From an uncultured Chloroflexia bacterium (GTDB lineage: Bacteria; Chloroflexota; Limnocylindria; Limnocylindrales; CSP1-4), in NCBI GenBank assembly GCA_963716375.1, contig OY970306.1, positions 2,421,228 to 2,485,227 on the forward strand: 64,000 nt of DNA, given 5' to 3'. Positions 1-15,003 of this stretch are shown here, one piece after another. Position 1 is the stretch's first letter, and each line of letters starts with the position of its first letter. The translations under genes and the position numbers were made by a program. Below the pieces are notes generated by a model. That model ran no database searches. It worked only from the letters and a program-made list of their open reading frames with translations, and was not told the origin of the DNA.

Positions 1-93
1 CTTGGTCGCGGTGGTGCTCGTGCTGCTGCTGCAGGCGGCGGCAGCCAGCGCCACCACGATCAGCAGCGCGGCCAGTCGGCGTGTCGTTTGCAT
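1..93 (-). CDS. Lipoprotein N-terminus (partial, runs off window); probable substrate-binding protein of the adjacent ABC transporter
   Basis: The reverse complement of 1-93 reads MQTTRRLAALLIVVALAAAACSSSTSTTATK, a signal peptide with lipobox LAAAAC|S. A GGAGGG Shine-Dalgarno sits at about 100-106. It lies last in a permease-ATPase-permease operon. Confidence 0.5.
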   Translation of the reverse strand, partial: MQTTRRLAALLIVVALAAAACSSSTSTTATK

Positions 94-228
94 GAGAACC
101 CTCCTCGTCGAAACTCCCTGGGCTGGGCGCGACGCGTGTCGATGATCAGGTGCTTCGCTCACCTCCTCCTGTCGGCGACCTGCGCGGGGCGTCCCGGCCG
201 GCCGCATCGGTCGCTCGCCGACCTCCGT

Positions 229-1071
229 TCACGGTTCCTGTTCCCGCATGGCGGTATGCCACGGCATCATCAGGCGCTCAAATGCGAGTACCACGAGATA
301 GAAGACGATGCCCAGCAGGCAGGCCATGACGATCGCCGCCCAGGCATTCGGGTAGCGGAAGACGTACGCCTCGGAGGTGATGTAGATCCCGAGTGCCTGC
401 TGCGGACCGCCGAAGTACTCGCCCACGACGGCCCCGATGACGCTGAGCGTGGTCGCGATCTTGAGGCCTGTGAAGATGTACGGCAGGGCGTTCGGGATCC
501 GGAGCTTGCGCAGGACCTGGCCTTCGGTGGCGGCCAGGGAGTGCATCAGCTCGACCGCGGAGGGGTTGACCTCGGTCAGGCCCCGGACCGTGTTGATCAT
601 CATGGGGAAGAAGACCATCAGGGCGACGATGGCCATTCGCGAGAACGGGCTCTGCGAGCTGAACCAGTTGTTGGCAATCGGCGCGAACGCGATGATCGGG
701 ATCGAATTGGCCGCGATCGCCAGCGGCATCAGCGACTCGCGCGCGGATTCCCAGCGTGAGGTCGCGAGCGCGACGCCGACGCCCAGGGTCACCCCGATGA
801 GGAGGCCGCCGAGGGCCTCGGTCGCGGTGAAGAGGATGCCGGACTGGAGCGTCGGCCACTGATCGACGAGGGCCGCGGCGATGACCGACGGCCGCGGCAG
901 CAGGAACTGCTGCACGCCGAGCACCGTCAGCGTGACTTCCCACAGGACGAGGACGATCAGGAAGACGGCGATGGGCGGCCCCAGCGATCGCGCCCGGGCC
1001 CCCGGCCGCAGCCGTCCCGGCCCGCTCGAGACGGACCCGCCCGGTTGGCCGACCGCCACGCCGGCGCTCAC
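229..1071 (-). CDS. ABC transporter permease (NitT/TauT aliphatic sulfonate/nitrate/taurine-type family)
   Basis: A 280-aa multi-TM protein with BPD-transporter signature around ...LKIATTLSVIGAVVGEYFGG... It overlaps the upstream ATPase stop by 4 bp. Confidence 0.85.
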   Translation of the reverse strand: MSAGVAVGQPGGSVSSGPGRLRPGARARSLGPPIAVFLIVLVLWEVTLTVLGVQQFLLPRPSVIAAALVDQWPTLQSGILFTATEALGGLLIGVTLGVGVALATSRWESARESLMPLAIAANSIPIIAFAPIANNWFSSQSPFSRMAIVALMVFFPMMINTVRGLTEVNPSAVELMHSLAATEGQVLRKLRIPNALPYIFTGLKIATTLSVIGAVVGEYFGGPQQALGIYITSEAYVFRYPNAWAAIVMACLLGIVFYLVVLAFERLMMPWHTAMREQEP

Positions 1072-2000
1072 CCGAGACCTTCCGCCCGGACCCGCGCCGC
1101 ATCGGTCGCGGTCATGCCCGGCGCGTCACTCTCGTTGCGGCGGAGCGATTCGCGGACCGCCGTGACCAGTTCGAAGTAGTGCTCCTGCTCCCGTGTCTCG
1201 ACCACCCGGGGCTGCGGCAGGTCGACGTCGATGACGGATGAGATCCTGCCCGGCCGGGCCGACATCACGACGACCCGGTTGGACAGGAAGACGGCCTCTG
1301 GGATCGAGTGCGTCACGAAGACGATCGTGGTCCCGAGTCGCCGCCAGATGTTCATCAGCTCGAGGTTCATCCGCTCGCGGGTCATCTCGTCGAGGGCCCC
1401 GAACGGCTCGTCCATCAGGAGGAGCCGCGGATCGAACGCGAGGGCGCGGGCAATCGCCACGCGCTGCTGCATGCCGCCCGACAGCTGCCAGGGGTATTTC
1501 GGGGCGAACTCGCGCAACTCGACGAGGTCCAGCAGGCTCCTCGCCCGGCGCTCGCGTTCGGCCTTCGGGAAACCCATGATCTCCAGCGGCAGCTCAACGT
1601 TGCCGATCACGGTCCGCCAGTCCATCAGGACGGGCGCCTGGAAGACCATCCCGTAGTCGCGGTCGAGGCGGGCCTGGCGGGCCGGCTTGCCGTTGATCCG
1701 CACCTCACCCTCGGTCGGGCCGGTGAGGTCGCCGATGAGCCGCAGCAGGGTCGACTTGCCGCAGCCGGATGGACCGATGAGCGAGACGAACTCGCCCTCG
1801 GCGACGGACAGGTCGATCGAATGGAGTGCCTCGACCGAGCCCTCGCCAGTCCCGAACGTCTTGCCGACGCCGGCGATGTCCACCACGGACCGAGCCGGGG
1901 CCGTGGCGTGGGACGTGGCGGCCGGCGCTGCCAGCCCGGAGTGCGCCGCCGCCGAGGCTGGCGCAGGTCCGGCGGGTGTGGCGCCCGTCGGGTCCGTCAT
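1068..2000 (-). CDS. ABC transporter ATP-binding protein (NitT/TauT family)
   Basis: Walker A GPSGCGKST, ABC signature LSGGMQQRVAIARAL and Walker B LLLMDEPFGALD. The start MTDPTG overlaps the upstream permease stop (ATGA). The longer 577-aa ORF on the track is an N-terminal read-through artefact. Confidence 0.85.
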   Translation of the reverse strand: MTDPTGATPAGPAPASAAAHSGLAAPAATSHATAPARSVVDIAGVGKTFGTGEGSVEALHSIDLSVAEGEFVSLIGPSGCGKSTLLRLIGDLTGPTEGEVRINGKPARQARLDRDYGMVFQAPVLMDWRTVIGNVELPLEIMGFPKAERERRARSLLDLVELREFAPKYPWQLSGGMQQRVAIARALAFDPRLLLMDEPFGALDEMTRERMNLELMNIWRRLGTTIVFVTHSIPEAVFLSNRVVVMSARPGRISSVIDVDLPQPRVVETREQEHYFELVTAVRESLRRNESDAPGMTATDAARVRAEGLG

Positions 2001-2944
2001 GGCCGGGCCTCGATCGGCCGGTAGCGGCCGCGGGTGACGAGCCGTTCCACGACCCAGATCAGGCCGACGAAGAACAGCCCCAACAGGCAGGTCGCGATGA
2101 TCGTGGCCCAGAGCTTCTCGGGATCGGTCACGTAGTACTGGTTGAAGTTGAGGATCGCGCCGCCGAGTCCCCCCGGGATGCCCGAGGGCAGCTCGCCGAT
2201 GATCGCGCCGATGATGCTGGCCGTGGCCCCGATCCGGAGCGCCACGAACAGGTACGGCACCGACGCCGGCAGGCGCAATCGCCAGAGGATCTGCGACCGA
2301 CTCGCGGCATACGAGCGCATCAGCTCGAACGCCCGCGGGTCGGCGGAGCGCATCCCGCGCAGCGCGCCGACGGTGACCGGGAAGAACGTCAGGTAGGCCG
2401 AGATGACCGCCACGGACAGCCAGTCGGCCCGCAGGAAGATCACGATGATCGGGGCAAGAGCGATGATCGGCACGGTCTGGGACGCGACCACGTAGGGCAC
2501 CAGCGCCCGCTCCAGCAGGCCCGAATGGATGAACAGGATGGCGAGGCCGAGGCCCAGCAGCGCCCCGAAGACGAACCCGATGAGCGCCTCCTGGAACGTG
2601 AAGACCGCCGCACCGAGCAGGACCGACGCCATCGGCGGGCCGTTCCGCTGGGCAGGCTCCAGGAACGAACCGGCGATGTTCCAGACATGGGGCAGGGCAA
2701 GGTCCGTGGCGATCCGAATCGAGAACGGCGGCCGGTGTTCGTAGTCGATGCCGAACCCGGCGATCGAGGCGTGGATGCGCCACGGATCGCCGGCGAGCCA
2801 CTTGAGCAGCTCCCAGGCGACGAGCAGCAGCCCGATGACGACGAGGATCCCGAGCGTCCGCCGCCGCCGGCTGAGCCCCGCGCTCGCCGAGGGCGACGCG
2901 GATCGACCGCCCGGCCGGATCAGCGAGCGGCTTGCCGTGGTCAT
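1997..2944 (-). CDS. ABC transporter permease (NitT/TauT family), second permease
   Basis: A 315-aa multi-TM protein, paralogous to 229-1071 in permease topology and motifs. Confidence 0.85.
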   Translation of the reverse strand: MTTASRSLIRPGGRSASPSASAGLSRRRRTLGILVVIGLLLVAWELLKWLAGDPWRIHASIAGFGIDYEHRPPFSIRIATDLALPHVWNIAGSFLEPAQRNGPPMASVLLGAAVFTFQEALIGFVFGALLGLGLAILFIHSGLLERALVPYVVASQTVPIIALAPIIVIFLRADWLSVAVISAYLTFFPVTVGALRGMRSADPRAFELMRSYAASRSQILWRLRLPASVPYLFVALRIGATASIIGAIIGELPSGIPGGLGGAILNFNQYYVTDPEKLWATIIATCLLGLFFVGLIWVVERLVTRGRYRPIEARP

Positions 2945-2969
2945 TCGACGCTCGGCCGCCCGCTCGCCG

Positions 2970-4307
2970 TCAGGCTCGGACCGACTGGTCGGTGATCGCG
3001 AGGGCCCGATCGATGATCTCGAAGCCCTGGCGGAGCTCGGCCTCGCTGATCGTCAGCGGCGGGTTCGTGTAGACGCTGTTCCAGCGGACCATCGTGTAGA
3101 GGCCCTCCTGGCGGAAGAACCGGCCGATGGCGGCCATCTCGTCCGAGGTCCCGTTGTACGGCGTCAGCGGGGTGTACGGCTCACGGCTCCGGACGAGATC
3201 GATGATCCCGAACAGGCCGATGTTGCGCGCCGCGCCGACGGACGGGTGGCGGGCGACCAGGTCATCCATCAATGAGCGCATCAGGACGCCTCGCCGGGCC
3301 GCCTGCTCGATCAGCCCGTCCTCCTCGTAGACCGCGATCGTGGCCAGGGCGGTGGCGCAGCCAAGTGGGTGGCTGTTGTACGTCAGCCCGCCGTAGAACA
3401 CGTTCTCGCGGAAATGCTCCGCGATGTGATGGCGCATCCCGAGAGCCCCGAGCTGGACGTAGGCGCTCGTCAGCCCCTTGGCCATCGTCATCAGGTCGGG
3501 TACCACGCCCCAGTGGTCGATCGCGAACCACTTGCCGGTTCGCCCGAAGCCGGCCATCACCTCGTCAACGACCAGCAGGATTCCATTGCGATCGCAGATG
3601 TCACGCAGGCCCTGCATGTAGCCGTCGGGCGGGACGAGGATGCCATTGGTGCCCACGACGGTCTCGACGAAGATCGCCGCGATCGTCCTCGCCCCCTCGT
3701 ACATGATCACGTCCTCGGTCTGCTGGAGGACCTCGGCGACGGGCTCCGGCTCGGCCTTCGCCCAGCGGTGGAAATCCGGGATTCGCACGACCCCGGGCAT
3801 GCCCGGCTCGACCGGCCAGCGCCGCGGATCGCCGGTCAGGGTGATGGCCCCGTTTGTGCCGCCGTGGTACGAGCGGTAGCGGGCCAGGATCTTGTTGCGG
3901 CCGGTGAACATGCGGGCGACCTTGATGGCGTTCTCGTTCGCCTCGGCGCCGCCGTTCGTGAAGAAGAACGTGTCGATGTCGCCCGGAGTGATCTCGGCGA
4001 GCTTCGCGCCCAGGCGCGCCCGGGGCTCGGTTGCCATGAACGGATTGGCGTAGGCCAGGGTCGCGGCCTGCTCCGCGATGGCCCGGACGACGCGTTCGTC
4101 GCCATGGCCGATGTTCGTGCACATCAGCTGGGCGTTGAAATCGAGGTAGCGCTTGCCTTCGGGGGTCCAGAACCAGCAGCCCTTGGCCCCGGCGACGGGG
4201 ATCGGATCGACCCGCGCCTGGGCGGACCATTCGAAGATCGTGTGCTGCTTCGTGAGCGCGACGATCTCTTCGCCGGTCATGGAACCCGGCGCTGTGCTGA
4301 TTCCCAT
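2970..4307 (-). CDS. Class-III PLP aminotransferase (omega-amino acid/beta-alanine:pyruvate aminotransferase-like)
   Basis: A 445-aa protein with an aminotransferase-class-III fold, including the PLP-lysine region ...DEVMAGFGRTGKWFA... Its context with pyrimidine-catabolism genes and mmsA suggests a beta-alanine to malonate semialdehyde role. Confidence 0.85.
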   Translation of the reverse strand: MGISTAPGSMTGEEIVALTKQHTIFEWSAQARVDPIPVAGAKGCWFWTPEGKRYLDFNAQLMCTNIGHGDERVVRAIAEQAATLAYANPFMATEPRARLGAKLAEITPGDIDTFFFTNGGAEANENAIKVARMFTGRNKILARYRSYHGGTNGAITLTGDPRRWPVEPGMPGVVRIPDFHRWAKAEPEPVAEVLQQTEDVIMYEGARTIAAIFVETVVGTNGILVPPDGYMQGLRDICDRNGILLVVDEVMAGFGRTGKWFAIDHWGVVPDLMTMAKGLTSAYVQLGALGMRHHIAEHFRENVFYGGLTYNSHPLGCATALATIAVYEEDGLIEQAARRGVLMRSLMDDLVARHPSVGAARNIGLFGIIDLVRSREPYTPLTPYNGTSDEMAAIGRFFRQEGLYTMVRWNSVYTNPPLTISEAELRQGFEIIDRALAITDQSVRA

Positions 4308-4593
4308 CGGTCCACCTCGGGCTGGCTGTGCCGGCCGCAGGGGCCATCCGTGACGGCCTCACGCCCGGAGGGGACCCGAGCGTCCAGCCTGTCTTCCGCG
4401 GTCGGGCGATCCCTCGGAACGTGGCCGTCATTCAACCACACTTGAGCACGCCGGCCCAGCCGTCCGGACCGGATTCGGCGGTGGCGCCGGCGCCCGCGAT
4501 GGGCCACCGGCCCTGGCGCCGGGTGACGGGTTCCGGCTTCGGCGGTACCATGGCGACCGGACCCATCCCCCGCGCACCGCACAGGTACAGGCC

Positions 4594-6972
4594 ATGCCCA
4601 TGCCGTCGAGGGCACGATTCGCCCTCGCCGCAGCGCTCGCCCTGGTCGCGAGCGGCGTTCCCTTCGGCACGCTTCCCCCGCTCGATGACCTTCGATCCGG
4701 GCTCGGCCTGGAGCCCGGATCGGCCCGGGCAGCCATCCAGCAGCAGTTCGCCCAGCAGGGCATCCTGCCCGTCGCCCCGGGCGTGAATCACGAGTGGGGC
4801 GCGATGTCGACGAGTTCCGGACCGCAGGTCGTCAACCTCGTCGAGGTCGCCCCGAACGCGCCGGGGATCACGTTCGAGTCGTCGATCGCGCGCGGTACGG
4901 TCGTCGGCCTGGAGCGGCCGAGCGCCACGGCCAACCGCCAGAGCGTCGAGGGCCACCGCGCCGTCGCGGCGATCAACGGCGACGTCTGGAGCAGCTCGAG
5001 CGTCGGCGCCCAGGCTGCGCCCTTCGGGCTCGACATCCATCACGGCGAGCTGGTCGTCGCAGGCTCCGCCGCGCGGCCCGCCTTCGGGATCGACGGCAAC
5101 GGCCAGCCTCTCATCGGCGCCCCGGTCGTGACGGTCAACCTCCTGACCGGCGATGGCGCGTTCCACCCGATCGACCGCGTCAACCAGCGCCGCAACGCCG
5201 GCGAATTCGTCCTCTACACGCCGCGCTTCGGGTCGCAGACGGACGCCGACTCGTCGGGCATCGAGGTGGTCCTGAGCGGCGTTCCGCTGCCCCTCCGCGC
5301 CAACCTGAACGTGCCGGCCACGGTGGTCGCGGTCCGACCAGCAACGGGTTCGCTGCCGATCGACCCCACGACCGTCGTGGTGACGGGTCCGACGAATTCC
5401 TGGCTCGCGACGCTGCTGCCGGGCCAGCCGCTCCAGTTGACCCTGTCGATCACCTCGGGCTGGGAGAACGCCTCCGAAGTGATCGGCGGGCGCGAATTCA
5501 TCCTCCGCAACGGGAACACGTACATCTCGCCCCACCCGGCCATCGCCGACCAGCTCCACCCCCGGACGGCCCTCGGGATCACCGCGGACGGCGGCGTCGT
5601 CCTTGTCGTCGTCGATGGGCGCGACGCGGGCGTAAGCACCGGCGTCACCGACTCCGAGCTGGCGTCGCTCCTCGCCAGCAAGGGGGCCATCAATGCGATC
5701 AACCTCGATGGGGGCGGCTCGACCTCGATGTCCGTCCGGCAGCCGGGCGACGGGGTCGTCTCCGTCGTCAATCGGCCGTCGGACGGCACCGAACGATCGG
5801 TTGCCAACAGCCTCGTCCTGTTCAGCGCCGCTCCGACCGGTCCGCTGGCGATCCTCAACGTCACGCCCCATGCCACGTCGACCTACGTCTCGGCGTCGGT
5901 CCCCTATCGCCTGACCGGCCAGGATGCTGCGTACAACCCGGTCGGGGTCCCGGCCTCATCCATTGCCTGGTCCGTGGCCGGCGCCGCGGGAACCTTCGAT
6001 TCCGGCGGCCGCTTCACGCCGACCGGACCGGGCTCGGCGACGATCACGGCGGCCGTTGGCCCGGTCGAGGGTTCGGCAAGGCTGAACGTGCTCGTCGACA
6101 CCTCGCCCCCGGTCGCCCAACCGCCGGTCGTGACGCTCCTGAAGGGCGAGGCCATCGGTACGAGCATCCCGGTCCAGGTGAGCTGGCCGGCCGGCAAGGA
6201 CGTCGGGATCGGGCTGGCCGGCTACGCGCTCGATCGGAACGTGAACGGCCACGGCTGGGCGGCGACGCCATCCGGCAGCGCGATGAACCGGTACGTCCCA
6301 TCGGGTCTCGCGCGCAACACGAACTATCGCTATGCGATTCGCGCCTCGGACAAGGCCGGCAACGTCGGGGCCTGGGTGACCGGGCCGTCGTTCCGGGTCG
6401 TGACGCTGTCCGAAGCGTCGCCCTCGATCTCGTTCCACGGATCGTGGAGTCGCATCAAGTCGCCCTCCTATGACGGCAAGGCCGCGAAGTCGACCCGGAC
6501 TGCCGGTGCGTCGGCAACGTACACCTTCGTCGGGATGAGCTTCGCCTGGGTGGCCGCCACGAGTCCTGTCCGGGGCTCGGCTGCGGTCTACGTCGACGGC
6601 GTGCTGGCAGCCAACGTCAGCACGTACTCGAAGACGACGACGGCCCGGGAGATGGTCTTCACGCGCAGCTGGGACAAGATCGGCCGGCACACGGTCAAGA
6701 TCGTGGCGCTCGGGACGGCCGGCCATCCGCGGGTCGATATCGACGCCTTCGTCGTCCTGGCGAGCCCGACGATCACGGTCGGGGCGCCGCCGGCGTCCGG
6801 CAAGCCGGTTCCGTCGCCGACGCCCAGCCCGACCCCGACACCCACGCCGTCGCCGACCCCCGTGCCGACGCCGCCGCCCAGCCCGAACCCGTCGCCGACT
6901 CCCTCGCCCACCCCGACGCCCAGCCCGACCCCGTCGGGCGCTCCGACGCCGACACCGTCCGCCACGATCTGA
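4594..6972 (+). CDS. Secreted multidomain protein: phosphodiester glycosidase (NAGPA-like) domain + Ig-like/FN3 domains + conserved C-terminal beta-domain + Pro/Thr/Ser linker tail
   Basis: Signal peptide MPMPSRARFALAAALALVASG. Motifs AINGDVW and AINLDGGGSTSM are typical of the phosphodiester glycosidase family. An FN3-like YRYAIRASDKAGNVG is present. The C-terminal domain GHPRVDIDAFVV is shared with 58382-60547. The tail is PSPTPSPTPTPTPSPTP... Confidence 0.75.
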   Translation: MPMPSRARFALAAALALVASGVPFGTLPPLDDLRSGLGLEPGSARAAIQQQFAQQGILPVAPGVNHEWGAMSTSSGPQVVNLVEVAPNAPGITFESSIARGTVVGLERPSATANRQSVEGHRAVAAINGDVWSSSSVGAQAAPFGLDIHHGELVVAGSAARPAFGIDGNGQPLIGAPVVTVNLLTGDGAFHPIDRVNQRRNAGEFVLYTPRFGSQTDADSSGIEVVLSGVPLPLRANLNVPATVVAVRPATGSLPIDPTTVVVTGPTNSWLATLLPGQPLQLTLSITSGWENASEVIGGREFILRNGNTYISPHPAIADQLHPRTALGITADGGVVLVVVDGRDAGVSTGVTDSELASLLASKGAINAINLDGGGSTSMSVRQPGDGVVSVVNRPSDGTERSVANSLVLFSAAPTGPLAILNVTPHATSTYVSASVPYRLTGQDAAYNPVGVPASSIAWSVAGAAGTFDSGGRFTPTGPGSATITAAVGPVEGSARLNVLVDTSPPVAQPPVVTLLKGEAIGTSIPVQVSWPAGKDVGIGLAGYALDRNVNGHGWAATPSGSAMNRYVPSGLARNTNYRYAIRASDKAGNVGAWVTGPSFRVVTLSEASPSISFHGSWSRIKSPSYDGKAAKSTRTAGASATYTFVGMSFAWVAATSPVRGSAAVYVDGVLAANVSTYSKTTTAREMVFTRSWDKIGRHTVKIVALGTAGHPRVDIDAFVVLASPTITVGAPPASGKPVPSPTPSPTPTPTPSPTPVPTPPPSPNPSPTPSPTPTPSPTPSGAPTPTPSATI

Positions 6973-7079
6973 GGCACTGAGGGCCCTCGGGCCCGGTGTA
7001 AGCTTCGACGACTGATTGACCGGTTGCGGGTCCGGTCTGGCCGGCCCGCGCCAGCGACCCCTCGCGGAGGTGACGCCCA

Positions 7080-7931
7080 ATGCCCCGAAACGTTCGCGGA
7101 GCGCTGCTGCAGGCAACCTGGACCGGCGACAAGGAATCGATGATCCAGAAGCACGAGCGCTACGCCCACGAGGCCGCCGCCCAGGGCGCCCAGGTGATGC
7201 TCTTCCAGGAGCTGTTCTACGGGCCCTACTTCTGCCAGGTCCAGGACGCGCAGTACTACAGCTACACCGAGCACATCCCCGACGGACCCACGACGAAGCG
7301 GATGCAGGATCTCGCCAGGCAGACGGGCATGGTGATCGTCGTCCCGATGTACGAGGAGGACGAGAAGGCCTCGGGGATCTACTACAACACGGCCGCCGTG
7401 ATCGACGCGGACGGGAGCTACCTCGGCAAGTACCGCAAGACGCACATCCCCCATGTCAAGGGCTTCTGGGAGAAGTTCTACTTCCGGCCGGGCAACCTCG
7501 GCTATCCGGTCTTCGAGACGGCCGTCGGCAAGGTCGGCGTCTACATCTGCTACGACCGCCATTTCCCGGAAGGCGCCCGCGCACTCGGCCTCAACGGCGC
7601 GGAGATGGTGTTCATCCCGAGCGCCACGAGTCGCGGCCTCTCCGAGTACCTCTGGCGGATCGAGCAGGTCAGCCATGCCGTGGCCAACGGCTACTTCGTC
7701 GGCACGATCAACCGCGTCGGCATCGAGAAGGATCTCGGCGAGGACGACTTCTACGGCCAGAGCTACTTCGTGAACCCGCGCGGCCAGTTCATCGGCGCGG
7801 TCGGCGACGCGCACGAGGAGGAATTGCTGGTCCGGGACATGGATCTCGACCTGATCACCGAGGTCCGCCAGACGTGGCAGTTCTACCGCGACCGGCGACC
7901 CGACCAGTACGGAGACCTGGTCGCCCCCTGA
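7080..7931 (+). CDS. Beta-ureidopropionase (beta-alanine synthase), nitrilase-superfamily carbon-nitrogen hydrolase
   Basis: A 283-aa protein with strong similarity to eukaryotic-type beta-ureidopropionase (YRKTHIPHVKGFWEKFYFRPGNLGYPVFET...NGAEMVFIPSATSRGLSEYLWRIE...NRVG). The catalytic Cys lies in the YICYDRHFPE context. Confidence 0.85.
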   Translation: MPRNVRGALLQATWTGDKESMIQKHERYAHEAAAQGAQVMLFQELFYGPYFCQVQDAQYYSYTEHIPDGPTTKRMQDLARQTGMVIVVPMYEEDEKASGIYYNTAAVIDADGSYLGKYRKTHIPHVKGFWEKFYFRPGNLGYPVFETAVGKVGVYICYDRHFPEGARALGLNGAEMVFIPSATSRGLSEYLWRIEQVSHAVANGYFVGTINRVGIEKDLGEDDFYGQSYFVNPRGQFIGAVGDAHEEELLVRDMDLDLITEVRQTWQFYRDRRPDQYGDLVAP

Positions 7932-8079
7932 AACCTCCGACCAATGGCAACCTCGGGCGGACGGCATCCTCGGGCCAATGGCCTCGCGGGGCTCGGCCTT
8001 GGACCTCGGAGGGCGATTGCTCGGTCCACGGCGAGGGTGGCACGGCCGGCAATGAACAGTCACTGAGGGTTCCGTCACG

Positions 8080-9090
8080 ATGGACTTCGGGTTCACGCTC
8101 AAGCCGGAACACACGATCGAGCGCCACCTGGCCCTGACCCGCCAGGCGGAAGCCGCGGGCTTCAACTACGGCTGGCTGTTCGACTCCCATGTCCTGTGGC
8201 GCGAGCCGTACCCGCTCCTGACCCTCATGGCCGGGGCCACGACCCGGATGCGCCTCGGGACCTGTGTCACGAATCCAGCGACACGAGAGCCGACGGTGAC
8301 AGCCAGCGCCCTCGCCACGCTCAACGAGCTGAGTGGCGGCCGGATGGATCTCGGGATCGGCCGCGGCGACAGCGCGCGCCGGGTGCTCGGCAAGCCGCCG
8401 ACCTCGATGGCGATGCTCGAGGAGGCGGCGATCGTCATTCGCGACCTCGCCGAGGGCCGGGCGATCGAATACGAGGGCACGTGGCTGCAGTTGACCTGGG
8501 CCTCGGGCTTCGACCTGCCGCTCTGGATCGCGGGCTACGGCCCCAAGGCGATGGAGCTCGCCGGCCGGGTCGCCGACGGGATCATGCTCCAGCTGGCCGA
8601 TCCGGACCTGATCCGCCTCCTCGTCGGCCAGATCCACGATGCCGCACGGCGGGCCGGCCGGGATCCGGCCGAGATCCGGGTCATGGCGGCAGCCCCGGCC
8701 CACGTCGGACCGCTGGACCTGTGCCGCGAGCGGACCCGCTGGTTCCCGGCCCTCGTCAGCAACCATGTCGTCGATCTCGTCAACCGCTACCCGCGAGACC
8801 AGCTGCCGGCGGCACTGACCGGGTACATCTCGGATCGGACGGGCTACGACTACCACCACCATGCGGAGGTCGGCTCGGCCAACGCGGCGTTCGTCGGCGA
8901 CGAGGTGACGGACCGGTTCTGCGTCCTGGGGTCGGTCGACGATCACCGGCGCAAGCTGCGCGAGCTGGCGGCCGCCGGCGTGGACCAGTTCAACCTGTAC
9001 CTGATGAACGGCGACGAAGAGGAGATCGTCTCGGTCTACGGGAGCGAGGTCATCCCCGAACTCGGGGAGGTTCGGGCGACTCGTGGGTAG
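8080..9090 (+). CDS. Luciferase-like monooxygenase (LLM) family, probable F420-dependent oxidoreductase
   Basis: A 336-aa protein with a TIM-barrel LLM fold (MDFGFTLKPEH..., GIGRGDS, DQFNLYL). It is embedded between beta-ureidopropionase and dihydropyrimidinase. Confidence 0.8.
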   Translation: MDFGFTLKPEHTIERHLALTRQAEAAGFNYGWLFDSHVLWREPYPLLTLMAGATTRMRLGTCVTNPATREPTVTASALATLNELSGGRMDLGIGRGDSARRVLGKPPTSMAMLEEAAIVIRDLAEGRAIEYEGTWLQLTWASGFDLPLWIAGYGPKAMELAGRVADGIMLQLADPDLIRLLVGQIHDAARRAGRDPAEIRVMAAAPAHVGPLDLCRERTRWFPALVSNHVVDLVNRYPRDQLPAALTGYISDRTGYDYHHHAEVGSANAAFVGDEVTDRFCVLGSVDDHRRKLRELAAAGVDQFNLYLMNGDEEEIVSVYGSEVIPELGEVRATRG

Positions 9091-10090
9091 CCCGTCCGGA
9101 GCGGCCGGTCCGGCGGTCGGGCTCGTCCTTCGCCCGCTTCGCCCGGCGGACGCGCCCGCACTGTTCGACCTGGTCCGGCTCAGCCGGGCGGTCGACGGCG
9201 TGATCGAGCCGTTCACGCTCGACGAGCTGACTCACCACTGGTTCGATCATCCGGGTTCGAATCCGGAGGTCGATTCGCTGGGGGCGTTCGACTCGGACGG
9301 CGGCCTCGTCGGGTTCGCCTGGGTCTTCGCCAGGGATCGCCCATCCGACGTGGCCCGCGTCTTCCTCGCGGGCGACGTCCACCCCGGCCACCGCCGCGAG
9401 CGCCTCGGAACGCTGCTCCTGCGCCGGGCCGAAGAGCGGGCGCGGGTCGTCCTCGCGACGCTGGGGCCGGCGCTGACCGGCGAGATCTTCCTCGATTCGC
9501 CCGCGGGTTCGGCAGGTCGTGAGGCGCTGTTCCTGGGCGCGGGCTATCGGGAGGCACGGACGTTCGCGACGATGCGCCACTCCATGGCCGAACCGCCAGC
9601 GCCGGCCGAGCTCCGAGCCGACCCGCCGGGCTTCACGTTCCAGACCTGGACCGAAGCCCTCGATGACGAGACGCGGGCCGCCCACAACGACGCGTTCCGC
9701 GATCACTGGGGATCGGATCCCGTCTCGCGCGAACGCTGGCGACACGTCGTCCGGGGCGCGCCGGGTTTCGACAGCGCCTCGTCCTGGCTGGGTCTCGACG
9801 GCGACACCGTCGCCGGCTACACGCTGACCACGTTCACCACGGACGACGCCGGCCGCCGGCTCGGCTGGCTCGGCTCGATCGGCGTCCGACGCGGCTACCG
9901 GAAGCGCGGCCTCGCGTCGGCGCTGATCGCCCGCAGCCTGGCCGGATTCCGCGAGGCCGGGGCCCTCGAGGCCGGCCTCGACGTCGACCTCGAGAATCCC
10001 AGCGGCGCGCCGCGCGTCTACGGCGCCCTCGGGTTCCACGTCACCCGCCGATCGACGATCTACGTCAAGTCGGTCACGCCCGAGCGCTGA
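9083..10090 (+). CDS. GNAT family N-acetyltransferase with two tandem GNAT domains (MshD-like architecture)
   Basis: A 335-aa protein with two acetyl-CoA-binding motifs (RRERLGTLLLRRA and RKRGLASALIARS). Its start overlaps the LLM stop. Confidence 0.7.
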   Translation: MGSPSGAAGPAVGLVLRPLRPADAPALFDLVRLSRAVDGVIEPFTLDELTHHWFDHPGSNPEVDSLGAFDSDGGLVGFAWVFARDRPSDVARVFLAGDVHPGHRRERLGTLLLRRAEERARVVLATLGPALTGEIFLDSPAGSAGREALFLGAGYREARTFATMRHSMAEPPAPAELRADPPGFTFQTWTEALDDETRAAHNDAFRDHWGSDPVSRERWRHVVRGAPGFDSASSWLGLDGDTVAGYTLTTFTTDDAGRRLGWLGSIGVRRGYRKRGLASALIARSLAGFREAGALEAGLDVDLENPSGAPRVYGALGFHVTRRSTIYVKSVTPER

Positions 10091-10106
10091 CCGCGGAGGA
10101 GGAGCC

Positions 10107-11504
10107 ATGCGGACCCTGATCACGAACGGCACTGTCGTCACGGCCGAGGGCAGCCAGCGGGCCGACGTCCTCGTCGACGGAGAGCGGATCACGGCGCTGG
10201 GCGACGCCCTCGCCCGGCAGGGCGTGTCGCCGGATCACACGATCGACGCCACGGGCAAGTGGGTGATCCCGGGCGCCATCGACGTCCACACGCACATGGA
10301 GCTGCCATTCGGTGGCACCTTCGCCAAGGACACGTTCGAGTCCGGGACCCGGGCCGCGGCGTTCGGCGGGACGACCACCATCGTCGACTTCGCCGTCCAG
10401 TCGCGCGGCCGCTCGCTCCGCGAAGGCCTCGACACGTGGCATGCCAAGGCCGAGGGCAACGCCGTCGTGGACTACGGCTTCCACATGATCATGTCCGACG
10501 TCAACGATTCGACGCTGGCGGAGATGGACCAGCTCGTGGCCGAGGGCATCCCCGACTTCAAGCTGTTCACGGCCTACCCGGGCGTCTTCTACAGCGACGA
10601 CGGGGCGATCTTCCGGGCCATGCAGCGAACCGCCACCAACGGCGGCCTGATCATGATGCACGCGGAAAACGGCCCGGCCATCGACGTCGTGGCGGGCGAT
10701 CTCGTCGCCGCGGGCAAGACCGACCCGTACTTTCACGGCGTCGCCCGCGAGCCGATCTTCGAGGGCGAAGCGACGAACCGGGTCATCCGCCTCGCCGAAG
10801 CGGCCGGGGTGCCCGTGTACATCGTCCACCTCTCGGCCCGCGACGCGCTCAACGAGGTGCGGGCCGGGCGGGATCGCGGGACGCGCGTCTTCGCCGAGAC
10901 GTGCCCGCAGTACCTGTTCCTCTCGCTCGACGACCTCGGCGACGGCTTCAACGGCGCCAAGTTCATCTGCTCGCCGCCGCTGCGGACGGCCGACCACCAG
11001 GCGGAGCTGTGGACGGGTCTCGTCAAGGACGACCTGGCCGTCGTCTCGACGGACCACTGCCCCTTCGACTTCCACGGCCAGAAGGAGCTCGGGCGGGGCG
11101 ATTTCCGCAAGGTTCCGAACGGCCTGCCGGGCGTCGAGGACCGGGTCGACCTGATGCACGACGGCGGCGTGGTCTCGGGCCGGATCTCGCCCGAGCGGTG
11201 GGTCGAGATCATCGCCACGGCTCCGGCCAAGCTCTTCGGGATGTACCCGCGGAAGGGCACGATCGCCATCGGCGCCGATGCCGACATCGTGATCTACGAC
11301 CCGACGGCCGAGCACACGATCTCGGCCAAGACCCACCACATGGCCGTCGACTACTCGTGCTACGAGGGCCGCAAGGTGCGCGGCCGGTCCGACGTCGTGA
11401 TGTCGCGAGGCTCGGTCGTGGTGCGCGACGGGCAGTTCCACGGCCGCAAGGGCTGGGGCCGGTTCGTCAAGCGCTCGCCGAGCCAGCTCATCCACCAGGG
11501 GTAG
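10107..11504 (+). CDS. Dihydropyrimidinase / D-hydantoinase (cyclic amidohydrolase)
   Basis: A 465-aa protein with HxH metal motif DVHTHMELPFGGT, GGTTTIVDFA, and a carbamylated-Lys region consistent with dihydropyrimidinase. Confidence 0.9.
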   Translation: MRTLITNGTVVTAEGSQRADVLVDGERITALGDALARQGVSPDHTIDATGKWVIPGAIDVHTHMELPFGGTFAKDTFESGTRAAAFGGTTTIVDFAVQSRGRSLREGLDTWHAKAEGNAVVDYGFHMIMSDVNDSTLAEMDQLVAEGIPDFKLFTAYPGVFYSDDGAIFRAMQRTATNGGLIMMHAENGPAIDVVAGDLVAAGKTDPYFHGVAREPIFEGEATNRVIRLAEAAGVPVYIVHLSARDALNEVRAGRDRGTRVFAETCPQYLFLSLDDLGDGFNGAKFICSPPLRTADHQAELWTGLVKDDLAVVSTDHCPFDFHGQKELGRGDFRKVPNGLPGVEDRVDLMHDGGVVSGRISPERWVEIIATAPAKLFGMYPRKGTIAIGADADIVIYDPTAEHTISAKTHHMAVDYSCYEGRKVRGRSDVVMSRGSVVVRDGQFHGRKGWGRFVKRSPSQLIHQG

Positions 11505-11645
11505 GCCGCGGCCGGGTTGGGCGCACCTCGTGCGCAGACTGCCCGGTGCCGTGCGGGGCGGCTTCTTGTCACATTCTCACCCAGTGAGCGCTAGCCAGGA
11601 TTCGGCCCCGAACCCACGGCCTCGCTTGGCTTGTACGCCGCCCTG

Positions 11646-11663
11646 GTTGACGATTCCGTCAAC
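11646..11663. promoter_or_regulatory. Perfect palindrome GTTGACG-ATTC-CGTCAAC (candidate transcription-factor operator)
   Basis: A 7-bp inverted repeat with a 4-bp spacer. It sits centrally inside a longer imperfect inverted repeat (11571-11599 / 11721-11749), in the 538-bp intergenic region upstream of mmsA. Confidence 0.4.
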
Positions 11664-11796
11664 TTCTGGTCCCGATTTGGGGTCGGATGTTGCCTCGCGC
11701 GGCCTGGCTCGGCGGTAGCGCCTGGCTAGCGTCCGCCCGGTGAGAATCTGACCGGTTCCCTCCTGCGTCGAGAGTGCTGCCGGGACGGACCCCGGC

Positions 11797-11890
11797 GCCA
11801 CTCGCGCCGGGGCGCCACTCGCGCCGGGGCGCCACTCGCGCCGGGGCGCCACTCGCGCCGGGGCGCCACTCGCGCCGGGGCGCCACTCGC
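11797..11890. repeat. Perfect 17-bp tandem repeat (GCCACTCGCGCCGGGGC) x about 5.6, intergenic
   Basis: Copies of GCCACTCGC start at 11797, 11814, 11831, 11848, 11865 and 11882. The period is not a multiple of 3. It lies about 150 bp upstream of the mmsA start. Confidence 0.9.
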
Positions 11891-12041
11891 AGGAAGGCGG
11901 CACTCGCGCGATCCATTCGACCGGAGGCCCATGCCGGCGGCGGTACAATCGCCCGACTTCGGGTCGCCGCGCCTTCGGCCGCCCGCTCAAGCTCGCTCGT
12001 GGCACCTTCAGCGTCACGACCGCAGTGCCAAGGAGAGCCCG

Positions 12042-13520
12042 ATGGCCACGACGATGGAACCCCGCTCGCGAACCGAGGCTGCGACGCTGCGCAACTACAT
12101 CGGTGGTCGGTGGGTCGAGGCGACCGACGCCCGCGAGAGCATCGAGGTCCCCAATCCCGCAACGGAAGAGGTCCTCGGCCTCGTCCCGCTCTCGGGTGCG
12201 GGTGACGTGGCCGCGGCCGCCCGCGCGGCCCGCTCGGCCTTCCACGACTGGAGCGAGATCCCCGTTCCGGAGCGCGTCAAGTACCTCTACACGCTCCGAA
12301 CCGCCTACCTCGACAACCGCGAGGAGCTGATCCGCGGCGTCACGATCGAGAACGGCAAGATCTACTCGGATGCCGCCGGTGAGTACCGCCGCGCTCTCGA
12401 AGTCATCGAGTTCGCCATCGGGATGCCGACCCTGATGGCCGGCTACAACGTCGAGTCCGTCAGCCGCGGCATCGACACGATGATGGAGCGCTATCCGGTC
12501 GGGGTCACCGCGGCCATCACGCCGTTCAATTTCCCGCTGATGGTGCCCTTCTGGACGCTGCCGATCGCGATCGCCGCGGGCAACACCTACATTCTCAAGC
12601 CGTCGGAGCGGACGCCGTACAGCGCGATGCGCATCGCCGAGCTGATCGACCAGATCGGCCTGCCGGCGGGCGTCTTCAACCTCGTCCACGGCGCGGCCGA
12701 CGCCGTCCAGGCGATCTGCGCCGAGCCCGAGATCGACGCCGTCAGCTTCGTCGGCTCGGCGCGGGTCGCGAAGATCGTCTATGAGGCCTGCGGCAAGCAC
12801 GGCAAGCGCGTCCAGGCCCTGGGCGGGGCCAAGAACCACATCGTCGTCATGCCGGATGCGGTTGTCGCGCCGAGCGTCGAAAACCTCGCCGAGTCGGCCT
12901 TCGGCAATGCCGGCCAGCGCTGTCTCGCGGGCTCCGTGCTCACCGTCGTCGGCTCGGCCAGCGAAACGGTCCTGCCGCACGTCGTCGAGCGGGCCGAATC
13001 GATGAAGCTCGGCTTCGGCCTCGACGAGGGCATCGACATGGGCCCCGTCATCCGGGCCAATTCCCGCGAGCGGATCCGCCGGCTCGTCGACCAGGGCCTC
13101 AGCGAAGGCGCCACGATCATCCGCGACGGTCGCTCGAAGGTGCCGGACAAGGGCTTCTTCGTGGGTCCGACGATGATCGAGATCCAGCCAGACTCGATCC
13201 TCGCCGGCGAGGAGCTGTTCGGGCCGGTCCTGTCGGTGTTCAAGGCCGACACGATCGACACGGCCATCGACCTGATCGTGAACACCAACGACTACGGCAA
13301 CGCGAGCTCGATCTTCACGTCCTCGGGCAAGGCCGCGCGCGAGTTCAAGCGCCGCAATCCGGCGGGCATGATCGGGATCAACGTCGGCGTCGCTGCGCCC
13401 GTGGCCTTCTTCCCGTTCAGCGGCCACCGCAACTCGTTCTTCGGCGACCTGCACGTCACGGGCCGCGACGGGGTCGAATTCTTCACGACCAAGAAGACGA
13501 CGACCACGCGCTGGTTCTGA
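12042..13520 (+). CDS. mmsA: Methylmalonate-semialdehyde / malonate-semialdehyde dehydrogenase (CoA-acylating), aldehyde dehydrogenase family
   Basis: The protein starts MATTMEPRS..RNYIGGRWVEA and is 492 aa, with ALDH motifs and RBS AAGGAGAG. The upstream in-frame extension to 11931 lacks an RBS. Confidence 0.85.
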   Translation: MATTMEPRSRTEAATLRNYIGGRWVEATDARESIEVPNPATEEVLGLVPLSGAGDVAAAARAARSAFHDWSEIPVPERVKYLYTLRTAYLDNREELIRGVTIENGKIYSDAAGEYRRALEVIEFAIGMPTLMAGYNVESVSRGIDTMMERYPVGVTAAITPFNFPLMVPFWTLPIAIAAGNTYILKPSERTPYSAMRIAELIDQIGLPAGVFNLVHGAADAVQAICAEPEIDAVSFVGSARVAKIVYEACGKHGKRVQALGGAKNHIVVMPDAVVAPSVENLAESAFGNAGQRCLAGSVLTVVGSASETVLPHVVERAESMKLGFGLDEGIDMGPVIRANSRERIRRLVDQGLSEGATIIRDGRSKVPDKGFFVGPTMIEIQPDSILAGEELFGPVLSVFKADTIDTAIDLIVNTNDYGNASSIFTSSGKAAREFKRRNPAGMIGINVGVAAPVAFFPFSGHRNSFFGDLHVTGRDGVEFFTTKKTTTTRWF

Positions 13521-13566: not shown

Positions 13567-15003
13567 CTAGGTCGGGATCGGGGGCTCGGCCTCCCTGTTG
13601 GCAGCGTCCCGTGCGACTCGTTCTGGCTCGGCAAGCGCGGCGGCGGCGATGATCTCTTCGAGCTCTGGCGGGGTCAAGTGCGCCGGCACGGGTTCGGCGG
13701 CCGCCGGGACCGGCTCGGCCACAACCGGCTCGGCCGGCGCAACGTCCGGACCGAGGGCGACGCGATCGGCGAATGCCTCGGCCGCCGTCAGTTCCTCGGC
13801 GTCAACGTCGCCTTCAGGCAGCGAGGTGGTCGTGGACGAGACAAACGCGGCGATCGCGGCGCCCTTGGGCACCGGCGCTCGACCGGACAGGTTCGGGAAG
13901 TCGCCGCCGGCCCACCCACGGCCCGAGCGTTGGGCCGTTAGCAGGGTCTCCCGCAAACCGCTTTCGGTGGTCGGCGAGCCCGCTGCGGCGATGCCCGGTG
14001 CGGCCGCACGCGGAATGACGAGCTCCGAGGGCGTGACGACAGGTGGAGTCACCTGCCGGACGTCCGCCGGCGCCGGCCGTCCAATTCGAGAGCGTTCGGC
14101 CAGGACTTCGCGACTGTCCCGCCCGGTATGGGTCGCCAGCAGGACGAACAGCCCGAAGCTCGCAGCGGCAATCAGGAGCGCGGTGATCTGGCCGGCTCGG
14201 AACGGCCCGAGGACCTCGGGATCGCGCCACAGGAAGGCCGCTGCGATGCGAGCGAGCGCCCACAGGCTCAGCGCCGCGAAGAACACCCGCCCGTCCTGGT
14301 CCCGGAATCGGCCGACGAGCAGCAACGATCCGATCAGGAGGAAGACCGAAAGGATCAACAGGCCCTCGTAGACCTGCGCCGGATGGGCGGGAACCTGCGG
14401 GGTCAGCGTGCCCCATGGGCCTTCGCCGAGATAGCGGGTGGCCCACGGGAGATCGGACGGACTGCCCTGGCCGTTGGCGCCGAGGACCATCGCGAACTTG
14501 CCGAGGGCGAGGCCGAGGAGCAGCGGGATCGTGACGACATGCAGCCAGCGCCCGACCGGTGCCCCGAGCGCCATCGCGACAAGGATGCCAGCGGCGGTGC
14601 CGAAGATGATCGCGAAGCTCAGCTCGAGGCTGCCCTGGCCTGGATCGACGATGTACCCCGGATTGACGGAGTAGTAGTCCCAGTGGACGACGACGTAGCC
14701 GATCCGGCCGCCGATGACGGCGCCCGGGATGACGCCCAGGAGGATGAGCAGAAGATCGTCACGACGCAGGTGCCAGACGCCACGTTCGCTGCCGCCGAGC
14801 TCCGGGGAGGCCTCGTTCACGGCCGGCATCCGCCCGGCAATCAGGCCGGTGAGCGCGATCGACACGACGATGACCGCGGCGAGTGCCAGCGTTTCCCACC
14901 GGATGGCGAGTTCGCCGATCCTGAGAAGCGCCCCGAAGTCGAACGAGATGACTGCGGGCGTCACGGCTCTGGTCAGTGTACCGACGCGATCACCCCGGGA
15001 CAC
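13567..15003 (-). CDS. lgt: Prolipoprotein diacylglyceryl transferase paralogue (divergent Lgt) with long Ala/Pro-rich C-terminal extension
   Basis: The N-terminal core aligns motif-for-motif with canonical Lgt at 22556: GRIGYVVVHWDYY vs GRLYHVIDQWALY; LALGKF vs ARWGNF; YEGLLILS vs YESLSGIL. Confidence 0.65.
   Translation of the reverse strand: MSRGDRVGTLTRAVTPAVISFDFGALLRIGELAIRWETLALAAVIVVSIALTGLIAGRMPAVNEASPELGGSERGVWHLRRDDLLLILLGVIPGAVIGGRIGYVVVHWDYYSVNPGYIVDPGQGSLELSFAIIFGTAAGILVAMALGAPVGRWLHVVTIPLLLGLALGKFAMVLGANGQGSPSDLPWATRYLGEGPWGTLTPQVPAHPAQVYEGLLILSVFLLIGSLLLVGRFRDQDGRVFFAALSLWALARIAAAFLWRDPEVLGPFRAGQITALLIAAASFGLFVLLATHTGRDSREVLAERSRIGRPAPADVRQVTPPVVTPSELVIPRAAAPGIAAAGSPTTESGLRETLLTAQRSGRGWAGGDFPNLSGRAPVPKGAAIAAFVSSTTTSLPEGDVDAEELTAAEAFADRVALGPDVAPAEPVVAEPVPAAAEPVPAHLTPPELEEIIAAAALAEPERVARDAANREAEPPIPT

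Follow-up and report, generated by a model that had tools for sequence, protein, structure and literature searches.

Gene content of the locus

The DNA analyzed here (the window, 64,000 nucleotides of contig OY970306.1 from an uncultured Chloroflexia bacterium of the CSP1-4 lineage) begins with a group of genes, at positions 1-13520, that resemble those of reductive pyrimidine catabolism. Among them is a gene for a luciferase-like (LLM) oxidoreductase of the TIGR03842 family, which we consider a candidate for the first step of that pathway. The window has a G+C content of ~70%, and genes were picked by third-position GC and then by annotation. Families were called with curated NCBIfam cutoffs and Pfam, and structures were compared by using PDB sequence matches, an AF2 model, and Foldseek. 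The features are as follows.

1..93, minus strand: start of a lipoprotein (MQTTRRLAALLIVVALAAAACSSS...), seen in translation; the gene continues past the left window edge
229..1071, minus strand: ABC transporter permease 2 (BPD_transp_1; PF00528, 87 bits)
1068..2000, minus strand: ABC transporter ATPase, NitT/TauT-type (PF00005; ATG at 2000)
1997..2944, minus strand: ABC transporter permease 1 (NCBIfam matches to SsuC/TauC/NtrB-like permeases)
2970..4307, minus strand: class-III (omega) aminotransferase, PRK06062 subfamily (517 bits vs cutoff 472)
4594..6972, plus strand: NAGPA (phosphodiester glycosidase) domain protein, 792 aa (PF09992, 111 bits)
7080..7931, plus strand: nitrilase-superfamily carbamoyl-amidase (CNH), 283 aa (PF00795, 220 bits)
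8080..9090, plus strand: TIGR03842 LLM F420-dependent oxidoreductase, by family model (427 bits vs cutoff 295.45)
9083..10090, plus strand: double-GNAT acetyltransferase (PF00583, 58 bits); its start overlaps the LLM stop codon (8 nt)
10107..11504, plus strand: dihydropyrimidinase/D-hydantoinase (DHP, PydB; TIGR02033, 580 bits vs cutoff 393)
11548..11562, plus strand: terminator-like hairpin with a T-rich tail, after DHP (consensus match; no commoner than in shuffled sequence)
12042..13520, plus strand: CoA-acylating (methyl)malonate-semialdehyde dehydrogenase (MMSDH), mmsA (TIGR01722, 521 bits vs cutoff 448.5)

A first-pass annotation of this DNA had named four of these genes: the aminotransferase, the CNH, the dihydropyrimidinase, and mmsA. 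Profile and PDB matches place all four where it had put them and in the superfamilies it had given. For the dihydropyrimidinase, Bacillus D-hydantoinase/dihydropyrimidinases are the closest PDB matches (1e-151). However, its gene list omitted the LLM gene (8080-9090), the double-GNAT gene (9083-10090), and the ABC importer (1-2944). The first step of the pathway was treated as missing, and the LLM candidate inside the operon was overlooked.

The gene set recurs around orthologous LLM genes

When the locus was compared across related genomes, the same gene set recurred around orthologous LLM genes at 160 independent loci. Therefore, its co-localization is far beyond chance. One set of 80 loci, with one genome per species, was essentially all from Chloroflexota (mostly Limnocylindria/Limnocylindrales) and is referred to here as the Limnocylindria set. 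The CNH gene was 5' of the LLM gene on the same strand at 74 of these loci (orthologues 83-93% identical), and the DHP gene was 3' of it at 54, counted at ≥50% alignment coverage and inside the available flank. At the well-flanked loci (≥7 kb each side, n = 34), a same-strand DHP gene was within 7 kb at 32, and a CNH gene was at 33. A row of aminotransferase and ABC transporter genes divergent from CNH was found at 35/80. These relatives encode their aldehyde dehydrogenase, a clear MMSDH (728 bits), on the opposite strand.

The association extends to Streptomyces. Two replicons have, on one strand, CNH (69% identity), a class-III aminotransferase, further genes, DHP (60% identity), and LLM (48% identity), and the DHP stop codon is 12 nt before the LLM start. 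A metagenome scan with an alignment headed by the Streptomyces LLM gave a second set of 80 loci, with LLMs 61-79% identical to the Streptomyces protein. The contigs that were checked range from 45% to ~70% G+C, and these Streptomyces-type loci are probably actinobacterial. DHP was found at 55 of the 80, and the aminotransferase at 16. In the subset with ≥1.6 kb of upstream sequence (52 loci), a DHP, MMSDH, or CNH gene ended ≤250 nt 5' of the LLM gene at 49. The recurrent operons are CNH-DHP-LLM and CNH-(aminotransferase)-DHP-MMSDH-LLM-permease-ATPase-permease-substrate-binding protein (SBP). Their aldehyde dehydrogenase is a true MMSDH (704 bits), and the CNH orthologues of the Streptomyces and Streptomyces-type operons are 66-75% identical.

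The fullest operon of the metagenomic set is on contig Ga0208408_1000132 (L109; 45% G+C), which is probably from a freshwater actinobacterium. It reads CNH-aminotransferase-DHP-MMSDH-LLM-HIBADH-like dehydrogenase-permease-ATPase-permease-NMT1/THI5 SBP.

A different arrangement is found in Alphaproteobacteria. On Paracoccus and Leisingera plasmids, a cofG-cofH-cofD-cofC-cofE-npdG(Fno) operon ends with a TIGR03842 gene. In these relatives, the attached cof genes support F420 dependence of the LLM. On a Leisingera caerulea plasmid (locus L169; NZ_CP081074.1, 155000-185000), the cof-Fno-LLM operon is divergent from pntA-pntB-omega-aminotransferase-M20 carbamoyl-amidase-hydA-NCS1 nucleobase permease. 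There, the aminotransferase matches AptA (750 bits), the amidase matches TIGR01879, and hydA matches TIGR02033 (615 bits). All 10 of the 10 LLM-bearing Leisingera plasmids have hydA ~11-13 kb from the LLM gene. The Leisingera amidase is M20-type and nonorthologous to the window CNH. Therefore, this is an association with the pathway, not an inherited gene order. We propose that these neighbors would supply an electron route from PntAB through NADPH and Fno to F420H2. Beyond the two operons, locus L169 also has genes for sulfopyruvate decarboxylase (comDE) and a TRAP transporter.

The first-pass annotation had joined its four genes into a reductive pyrimidine (Pyd-type) cluster on the grounds of co-localization. 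That link is now backed by conserved gene neighborhoods in Chloroflexota, in Streptomyces, at the Streptomyces-type loci, and in one alphaproteobacterium, and we are confident that the genes form a module for pyrimidine catabolism.

No canonical dihydropyrimidine dehydrogenase gene was found beside the LLM gene

All characterized dihydropyrimidine dehydrogenases belong to the PyrD/DHO_dh family and have FMN and Fe-S clusters (PMC7332683). Known Pyd clusters contain PydA/PreTA, PydB, and PydC, to which PydD and PydE/MSDH may be added; Brevibacillus agri, E. coli (PreTA), and Clostridium (PydAc) have such clusters (PMC7332683). In common with them, the window has genes for a dihydropyrimidinase and a semialdehyde dehydrogenase, along with a putative carbamoyl-amidase, a putative beta-amino-acid aminotransferase, and a dedicated transporter. 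However, the known clusters have a DHO_dh-family PydA (NADPH-, NADH-, or ferredoxin-linked), whereas the window operon is without any.

The window had already been described as having no PreT/PreA/PydA, and a tblastn search of it with E. coli PreT and PreA bore this out (best E = 0.15). There was also no DHO_dh-type protein in Pfam scans of ~55 window open reading frames (ORFs). We extended the PreA search to 165 sequences totaling 2.05 Mb (the window and 164 LLM loci), in which it had no match at E ≤ 1e-3. In canonical clusters on other replicons, preA and hydA are within a few kilobases of each other and TIGR03842 is absent, as in the M20 hydrolase-preT-preA-hydA cluster of Mycetohabitans. 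The ten LLM-bearing Leisingera plasmids are not among the PreA-bearing replicons: ten records would have put the genus on the top-ten genus list of those replicons, from which it is missing.

The LLM protein resembles the F420-dependent reductase Mer

The LLM protein aligns with TIGR03842 over its full length (profile positions 1-329 of 329) and also matches PF00296 (212 bits). The syntenic LLMs of Streptomyces (590 bits) and L109 (578 bits) are members of TIGR03842 as well. Within the LLM F420 enzymes, PMC6279831 distinguishes a reductase (Mer) clade from a dehydrogenase clade. Mer is the closest solved sequence to the window LLM (8e-36, full-length), and Adf and FGD are far weaker matches (2e-15 and 7e-17). 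An AF2 model (pLDDT 82, pTM 0.85) had Mer-F420 structures as its best Foldseek matches (TM 0.78), followed by Adf, FGD, and fHMAD. By sequence and fold comparison, the window LLM sits on the reductase (Mer) side of the F420 family.

The LLM protein is not Mer itself, as judged by family cutoffs: it scored 155 bits against 276 for PRK02271 and 143.5 against 348.7 for TIGR03555. It has 28-30% identity to Mer (PDB 1Z69 and 8QPL) over the full length, with the same TIM-barrel F420 fold (TM ~0.78). Mer is an F420H2-consuming reductase of a heterocyclic substrate, but it acts in C1 metabolism, whereas the context of the window LLM is pyrimidine catabolism. Furthermore, the catalytic Glu6 of Mer (mutated in 8QQ8, E6Q) is Thr6 in the window LLM (FGIEF vs FGFTL in a HMMER alignment to 1Z69). 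This position is invariant in the Limnocylindria alignment and is Val or Cys in other phyla. Elements that are invariant across three phyla are DS, VTNP, GRGDSA, YGP, AAPA, NHVxD, GYDY..H, and FC.

The TIGR03842-like family is large. It comprises 467 clusters at 50% identity (E ≤ 1e-30, in a representative library) and at least 8000 clusters at 90% identity, the closest of which are mostly metagenomic. The nearest relatives of the window LLM are 75-94% identical and metagenomic, and those with names are from Chloroflexota (CSP1-4, Limnocylindrales).

The LLM protein as a candidate uracil/thymine reductase

The only activity missing around the LLM gene is reduction of the C5=C6 bond of uracil/thymine, and the LLM protein could supply that step. 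Because one step is missing and an F420H2-reductase lineage is kept at the operons in three phyla, we propose the LLM as the dihydropyrimidine dehydrogenase of the cluster. It is probably an F420H2-dependent uracil/thymine reductase and a nonhomologous replacement of the conventional enzyme. F420H2 is an obligate hydride donor (E0' about -340 mV), and reductases that use it typically add hydride to activated C=C bonds and to electron-poor rings. Hydride transfer to pyrimidine C6 followed by C5 protonation is chemically ordinary for deazaflavin reductases.

We propose that region 1-13520 is a complete import-and-degradation module for uracil/thymine. Pyrimidines would be taken up by an NMT1/THI5-type ABC importer. 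The LLM protein would then move a hydride from F420H2 to C6 of uracil/thymine, and protonation of C5 would give 5,6-dihydrouracil or dihydrothymine. The dihydropyrimidinase would open the ring, and the nitrilase-type amidase would produce beta-alanine or beta-aminoisobutyrate, NH3, and CO2. The class-III aminotransferase would convert these beta-amino acids to malonate or methylmalonate semialdehyde, and MMSDH would yield acetyl-CoA or propionyl-CoA. In this scheme we infer the substrate and reaction direction of the LLM protein, and likewise what the transporter, amidase, and aminotransferase act on. The downstream pathway is textbook, unlike the candidate first enzyme. Compared with PydA, the window LLM has another fold, another predicted cofactor, and no Fe-S clusters, and an F420H2 route would dispense with the four Fe-S clusters and two flavins of PydA.

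No description of an F420-dependent pyrimidine reductase was found in open-access papers or bioRxiv. One of the two nearest precedents is in antibiotic biosynthesis, where there is genetic evidence that a putative F420/FMN enzyme reduces the uracil C5=C6 bond of mureidomycin (PMC10714638). This protein (NpsU/SSGG-03002) is implicated in that reduction in napsamycin and mureidomycin, but its substrate is a nucleoside-peptide antibiotic and activity was not demonstrable in vitro (PMC10714638). Unlike the LLM, it resembles PPOX-class (split beta-barrel) F420 enzymes (PMC10714638, supplement). This rules out NpsU as a Mer-like LLM and leaves it as a chemical precedent only.

Several points weigh against assigning the LLM protein to this reaction. 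TIGR03842 is designated a "hypoth_equivalog" in NCBIfam. Cys62 and His37 were considered as catalytic acids and rejected because neither is conserved across phyla, and no catalytic residues are assignable. The GYDY loop (residues 253-270), which is plausibly a substrate lid by analogy, is in a low-confidence segment of the model. There is no F420 biosynthesis or Fno gene in the window, nor ≤10 kb from the Limnocylindria or metagenomic loci. In Paracoccus alcaliphilus, the cof-LLM-ABC region has no hydA in 59 kb upstream or 10 kb downstream. Therefore, linkage of the LLM gene to the pathway is not universal. Both locus sets were seeded on the LLM, and they speak to LLM genes keeping pyrimidine neighbors, not to every such pathway using an LLM. 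Finally, a PydA/PreTA gene elsewhere in the source genome is possible.

That last point underlies one alternative, in which a conventional dihydropyrimidine dehydrogenase is encoded elsewhere and the LLM is accessory. It might be a PydE-like enzyme that converts malonate or methylmalonate semialdehyde to the 3-hydroxy acid, or it might detoxify a side product. The genome was seen only within the window, LLM-class F420 enzymes include carbonyl/alcohol oxidoreductases (Adf, FGD, and fHMAD), and PMC7332683 describes an "extended" Pyd pathway with a malonic semialdehyde reductase. However, we consider an accessory role unlikely. The LLM gene tracks the upper-pathway genes DHP and CNH much more closely than the aminotransferase gene, both in Limnocylindria (CNH 74/80, DHP 54/80, and aminotransferase 35/80) and in the metagenomic set (55/80 for DHP against 16/80 for the aminotransferase). 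Many operons already have a bona fide MMSDH gene between DHP and LLM, and L109 also has a HIBADH-type 3-hydroxyacid dehydrogenase, so a further semialdehyde reductase would be redundant. Furthermore, the LLM is in the Mer clade rather than the Adf/FGD clade, and PreA had no match (E ≤ 1e-3) at any of 164 loci, whereas canonical clusters keep preA beside hydA. Another possibility is that, before a hydantoinase and a carbamoylase act, the LLM reduces a cyclic ureide or amide that is neither uracil nor thymine. Candidates are hydantoins, unsaturated hydantoins, and pyrimidines that are substituted or modified. TIGR02033 covers D-hydantoinase/dihydropyrimidinases broadly, the CNH is nearest to N-carbamoylputrescine amidase and not to a characterized beta-ureidopropionase, and the transporter could be specific for another compound. 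Even so, the recurrent MMSDH and frequent omega-aminotransferase fit beta-alanine/beta-aminoisobutyrate and not the alpha-amino acids that come from 5-substituted hydantoins. The CNH is also far nearer to beta-ureidopropionase/N-carbamoylputrescine amidase (1e-51 to 1e-61) than to D-carbamoylases (1e-26), and in Leisingera an NCS1 nucleobase permease is paired with the genes. We regard a pathway for another cyclic ureide or amide as quite doubtful.

Two other nucleobase pathways were also weighed. An F420-dependent luciferase-family reductase has been proposed, bioinformatically only, to replace YgfK/UacX in the reductive uric acid (yanthine) pathway of Chloroflexota, where a PF00296 protein is encoded beside SsnA and HyuA (PMC12507026). 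The idea behind this putative "yanthine reductase," the other of the two nearest precedents, is the same as ours: an F420 luciferase-family enzyme stands in for a PydA-like flavoenzyme in a reductive nucleobase dearomatization, beside a HyuA-type amidohydrolase. But it belongs to purine (urate) degradation and to neighborhoods defined by SsnA (PMC12507026), unlike the window locus. E. coli HyuA is 45% identical to DHPs at related loci, and one CSP1-4 locus has upstream PucR regulator, AllH, carbamate-kinase-like, and isochorismatase genes, yet a Chloroflexota variant of the urate pathway is very improbable here. At E ≤ 1e-8, neither the window nor the loci of Limnocylindria and Streptomyces had SsnA, YgfK, YgeW, YgeX, or YgeY, and XdhD was likewise absent from all of these; of the urate-pathway genes, they had only the HyuA-like DHP and, in CSP1-4, one carbamate-kinase-like gene. 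The 80 metagenomic loci had no SsnA, YgfK, or YgeW/X/Y at E ≤ 1e-10, and XdhD was found only weakly (22-26% identity), ~5-10 kb from the LLM gene, at two of the metagenomic loci. We rejected the urate pathway on these absences from the window, Limnocylindria, and Streptomyces loci; in addition, the products expected here, beta-amino acids with MMSDH acting next, are not the diaminopropionate and pyruvate of that route. Like the LLM, RutA is a luciferase-family protein, and it acts on uracil, so the LLM might be imagined as a RutA-like flavin monooxygenase for oxidative cleavage of the uracil ring. We give this almost no credence. RutA has 27% identity to the window LLM over ~100 residues (E = 2e-4), which is similarity at the superfamily level only, and the RutA model was not among the 25 NCBIfam families that matched at E ≤ 1e-5. 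There is no rutB-G set at the loci. On the superfamily-level similarity and the absence of that gene set, a Rut-type oxygenase was excluded. The TIGR03842 family is also attached to F420 biosynthesis operons, and F420H2 is not known to support oxygenase chemistry. In a Rut-type route, moreover, the DHP and carbamoyl-amidase would be without a substrate.

We therefore return to the LLM as a putative uracil/thymine reductase. For the family as a whole, the balance tips slightly toward TIGR03842 being a widespread, Fe-S-free, F420H2-dependent dihydropyrimidine dehydrogenase that is nonhomologous to PydA/PreTA. If this is true, a nonhomologous enzyme would have taken over the first, committing step of pyrimidine degradation in its most widespread form, and a large protein family lacking a function would gain one. 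In Chloroflexota and, probably, Actinomycetota, pyrimidine catabolism would be a core physiological use of F420. The same reading would account for those Alphaproteobacteria that have a complete cofGHDCE-Fno operon with the LLM as the sole attached F420 enzyme. Why Chloroflexi and Proteobacteria make F420 was an open question in a 2021 review, and the proposed role would bear on it (PMC8498797). Without such an assignment, the pathway would continue to be scored as incomplete in genome-scale metabolic reconstructions of Chloroflexota and Actinomycetota from soil and freshwater.

Downstream enzymes and transporter

The CNH has the catalytic residues Glu43, Lys120, and Cys157, in the motifs FQE, YRKTH, and ICYD. 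Its PDB matches are plant N-carbamoylputrescine amidase (1e-61), fly and human beta-ureidopropionases (1e-51 and 4e-49), and D-carbamoylases (1e-26), and it is below the AguB (TIGR03381) equivalog cutoff (269 bits vs 410). Animal beta-ureidopropionase and plant N-carbamoylputrescine amidase have the CN-hydrolase fold and the Glu-Lys-Cys residues in common with it. However, animal beta-ureidopropionase has an N-terminal extension that is missing from the 283-aa CNH. The earlier label "eukaryotic-type beta-ureidopropionase" was therefore right about the superfamily and the Glu-Lys-Cys motifs but overstated the type. None of the curated models gives the CNH a substrate. Its orthologues adjoin DHP at the Chloroflexota, Streptomyces, and Streptomyces-type loci, and the context of the gene suggests that the CNH would be an N-carbamoyl-beta-alanine/beta-ureidoisobutyrate amidohydrolase (PydC function).

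The aminotransferase had been called "beta-alanine-type". It is a class-III enzyme as described, but its closest solved relative is taurine:2-oxoglutarate aminotransferase (PDB 6JIX, 4e-100). Here too, it is the context that points to a specificity, that of a beta-alanine/beta-aminoisobutyrate transaminase (PydD-like). The same PRK06062 subfamily adjoins the LLM gene at another locus (L134, 771 bits).

The gene annotated as mmsA is a real MMSDH-family gene, but the syntenic MMSDH genes of relatives are different: they are on the opposite strand, and their products have only 41-44% identity to the window protein. The MMSDHs of the syntenic operons score 704-728 bits against TIGR01722. Sequence and position together make it a divergent paralogue in a different arrangement. 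A 537-nt spacer with the terminator-like hairpin is between DHP and mmsA, and an AAGGAG ribosome-binding site is 6 nt 5' of the mmsA ATG at 12042. The gene probably has its own transcript, and the CNH-LLM-GNAT-DHP transcript probably ends at the hairpin (11548..11562). No signal in the promoter and terminator scans exceeded shuffle expectation. Farther 3' than the hairpin, the spacer also contains a 17-nt sequence (GGCGCCACTCGCGCCGG) repeated perfectly in tandem (11794-11890; 5.7 copies, 100% matches).

Read from right to left, the minus-strand genes form an operon-like row of aminotransferase, permease 1, ATPase, permease 2, and lipoprotein. Both ABC junctions (permease 1-ATPase and ATPase-permease 2) are 4-nt overlaps. 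The lipoprotein is probably the SBP of the importer, because the permease-ATPase-permease-SBP order is the same as in the actinobacterial-type operon of L109. In ~25 Streptomyces-type metagenomic operons, the gene directly 3' of LLM encodes an ATPase with 58-64% identity to that of the window; the ATPase encoded after LLM in Paracoccus has 42.5% identity to it. Permease 1 is syntenic with the aminotransferase at 25/80 Limnocylindria loci. The NitT/TauT-type ABC importer belongs to the conserved module. The SBPs that adjoin the LLM in L109 and Paracoccus are NMT1/THI5-like, and characterized members of the NMT1/THI5 family handle pyrimidine moieties.

Lineage-specific and other genes

Variable cargo occupies the slots that separate CNH, LLM, and DHP: an AhpC/TSA-type gene and a PIN/MazE toxin-antitoxin pair in CSP1-4. 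In the window, the cargo is the double-GNAT gene, which is within the operon and translationally coupled to the LLM gene by the 8-nt overlap, yet is lineage specific, with no homologue among the 160 related loci. Its product is weakly MshD-like (53 bits, below the cutoff of 163). The NAGPA-domain gene also had no homologue among these 160 loci. It is probably a lineage-specific insertion between the divergent aminotransferase and amidase operons and unrelated to the pathway.

The CSP1-4 locus (L002/L007, LDXM01000008.1) has several other genes 5' of CNH-LLM-DHP. They encode a PucR-family regulator, an AllH-domain protein, a 979-aa protein without a Pfam match, a carbamate-kinase-like AA_kinase (48% identical to E. 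coli YqeA), and an isochorismatase/RutB-like protein. Such neighbors hint at ureide or oxamate metabolism next to the cluster.

Farther along the window, the prolipoprotein diacylglyceryl transferase (LGT) ORF at 13567-15003 is unusually long (478 aa as called), and its LGT domain is residues 26-287. A PLD-like protein (29451-30809) adjoins a 732-aa protein (30829-33027) with an N-terminal Phage_holin_4_2 membrane domain and a type I phosphodiesterase/nucleotide pyrophosphatase domain. A gene for a 1277-aa fusion, in the region through 42960, comes after an ornithine cyclodeaminase/mu-crystallin gene (38104-39114). The fusion joins a penicillin-amidase domain (PF01804, 687 bits) and a DAO-type FAD oxidoreductase domain (PF01266, 157 bits), a seemingly unusual combination.

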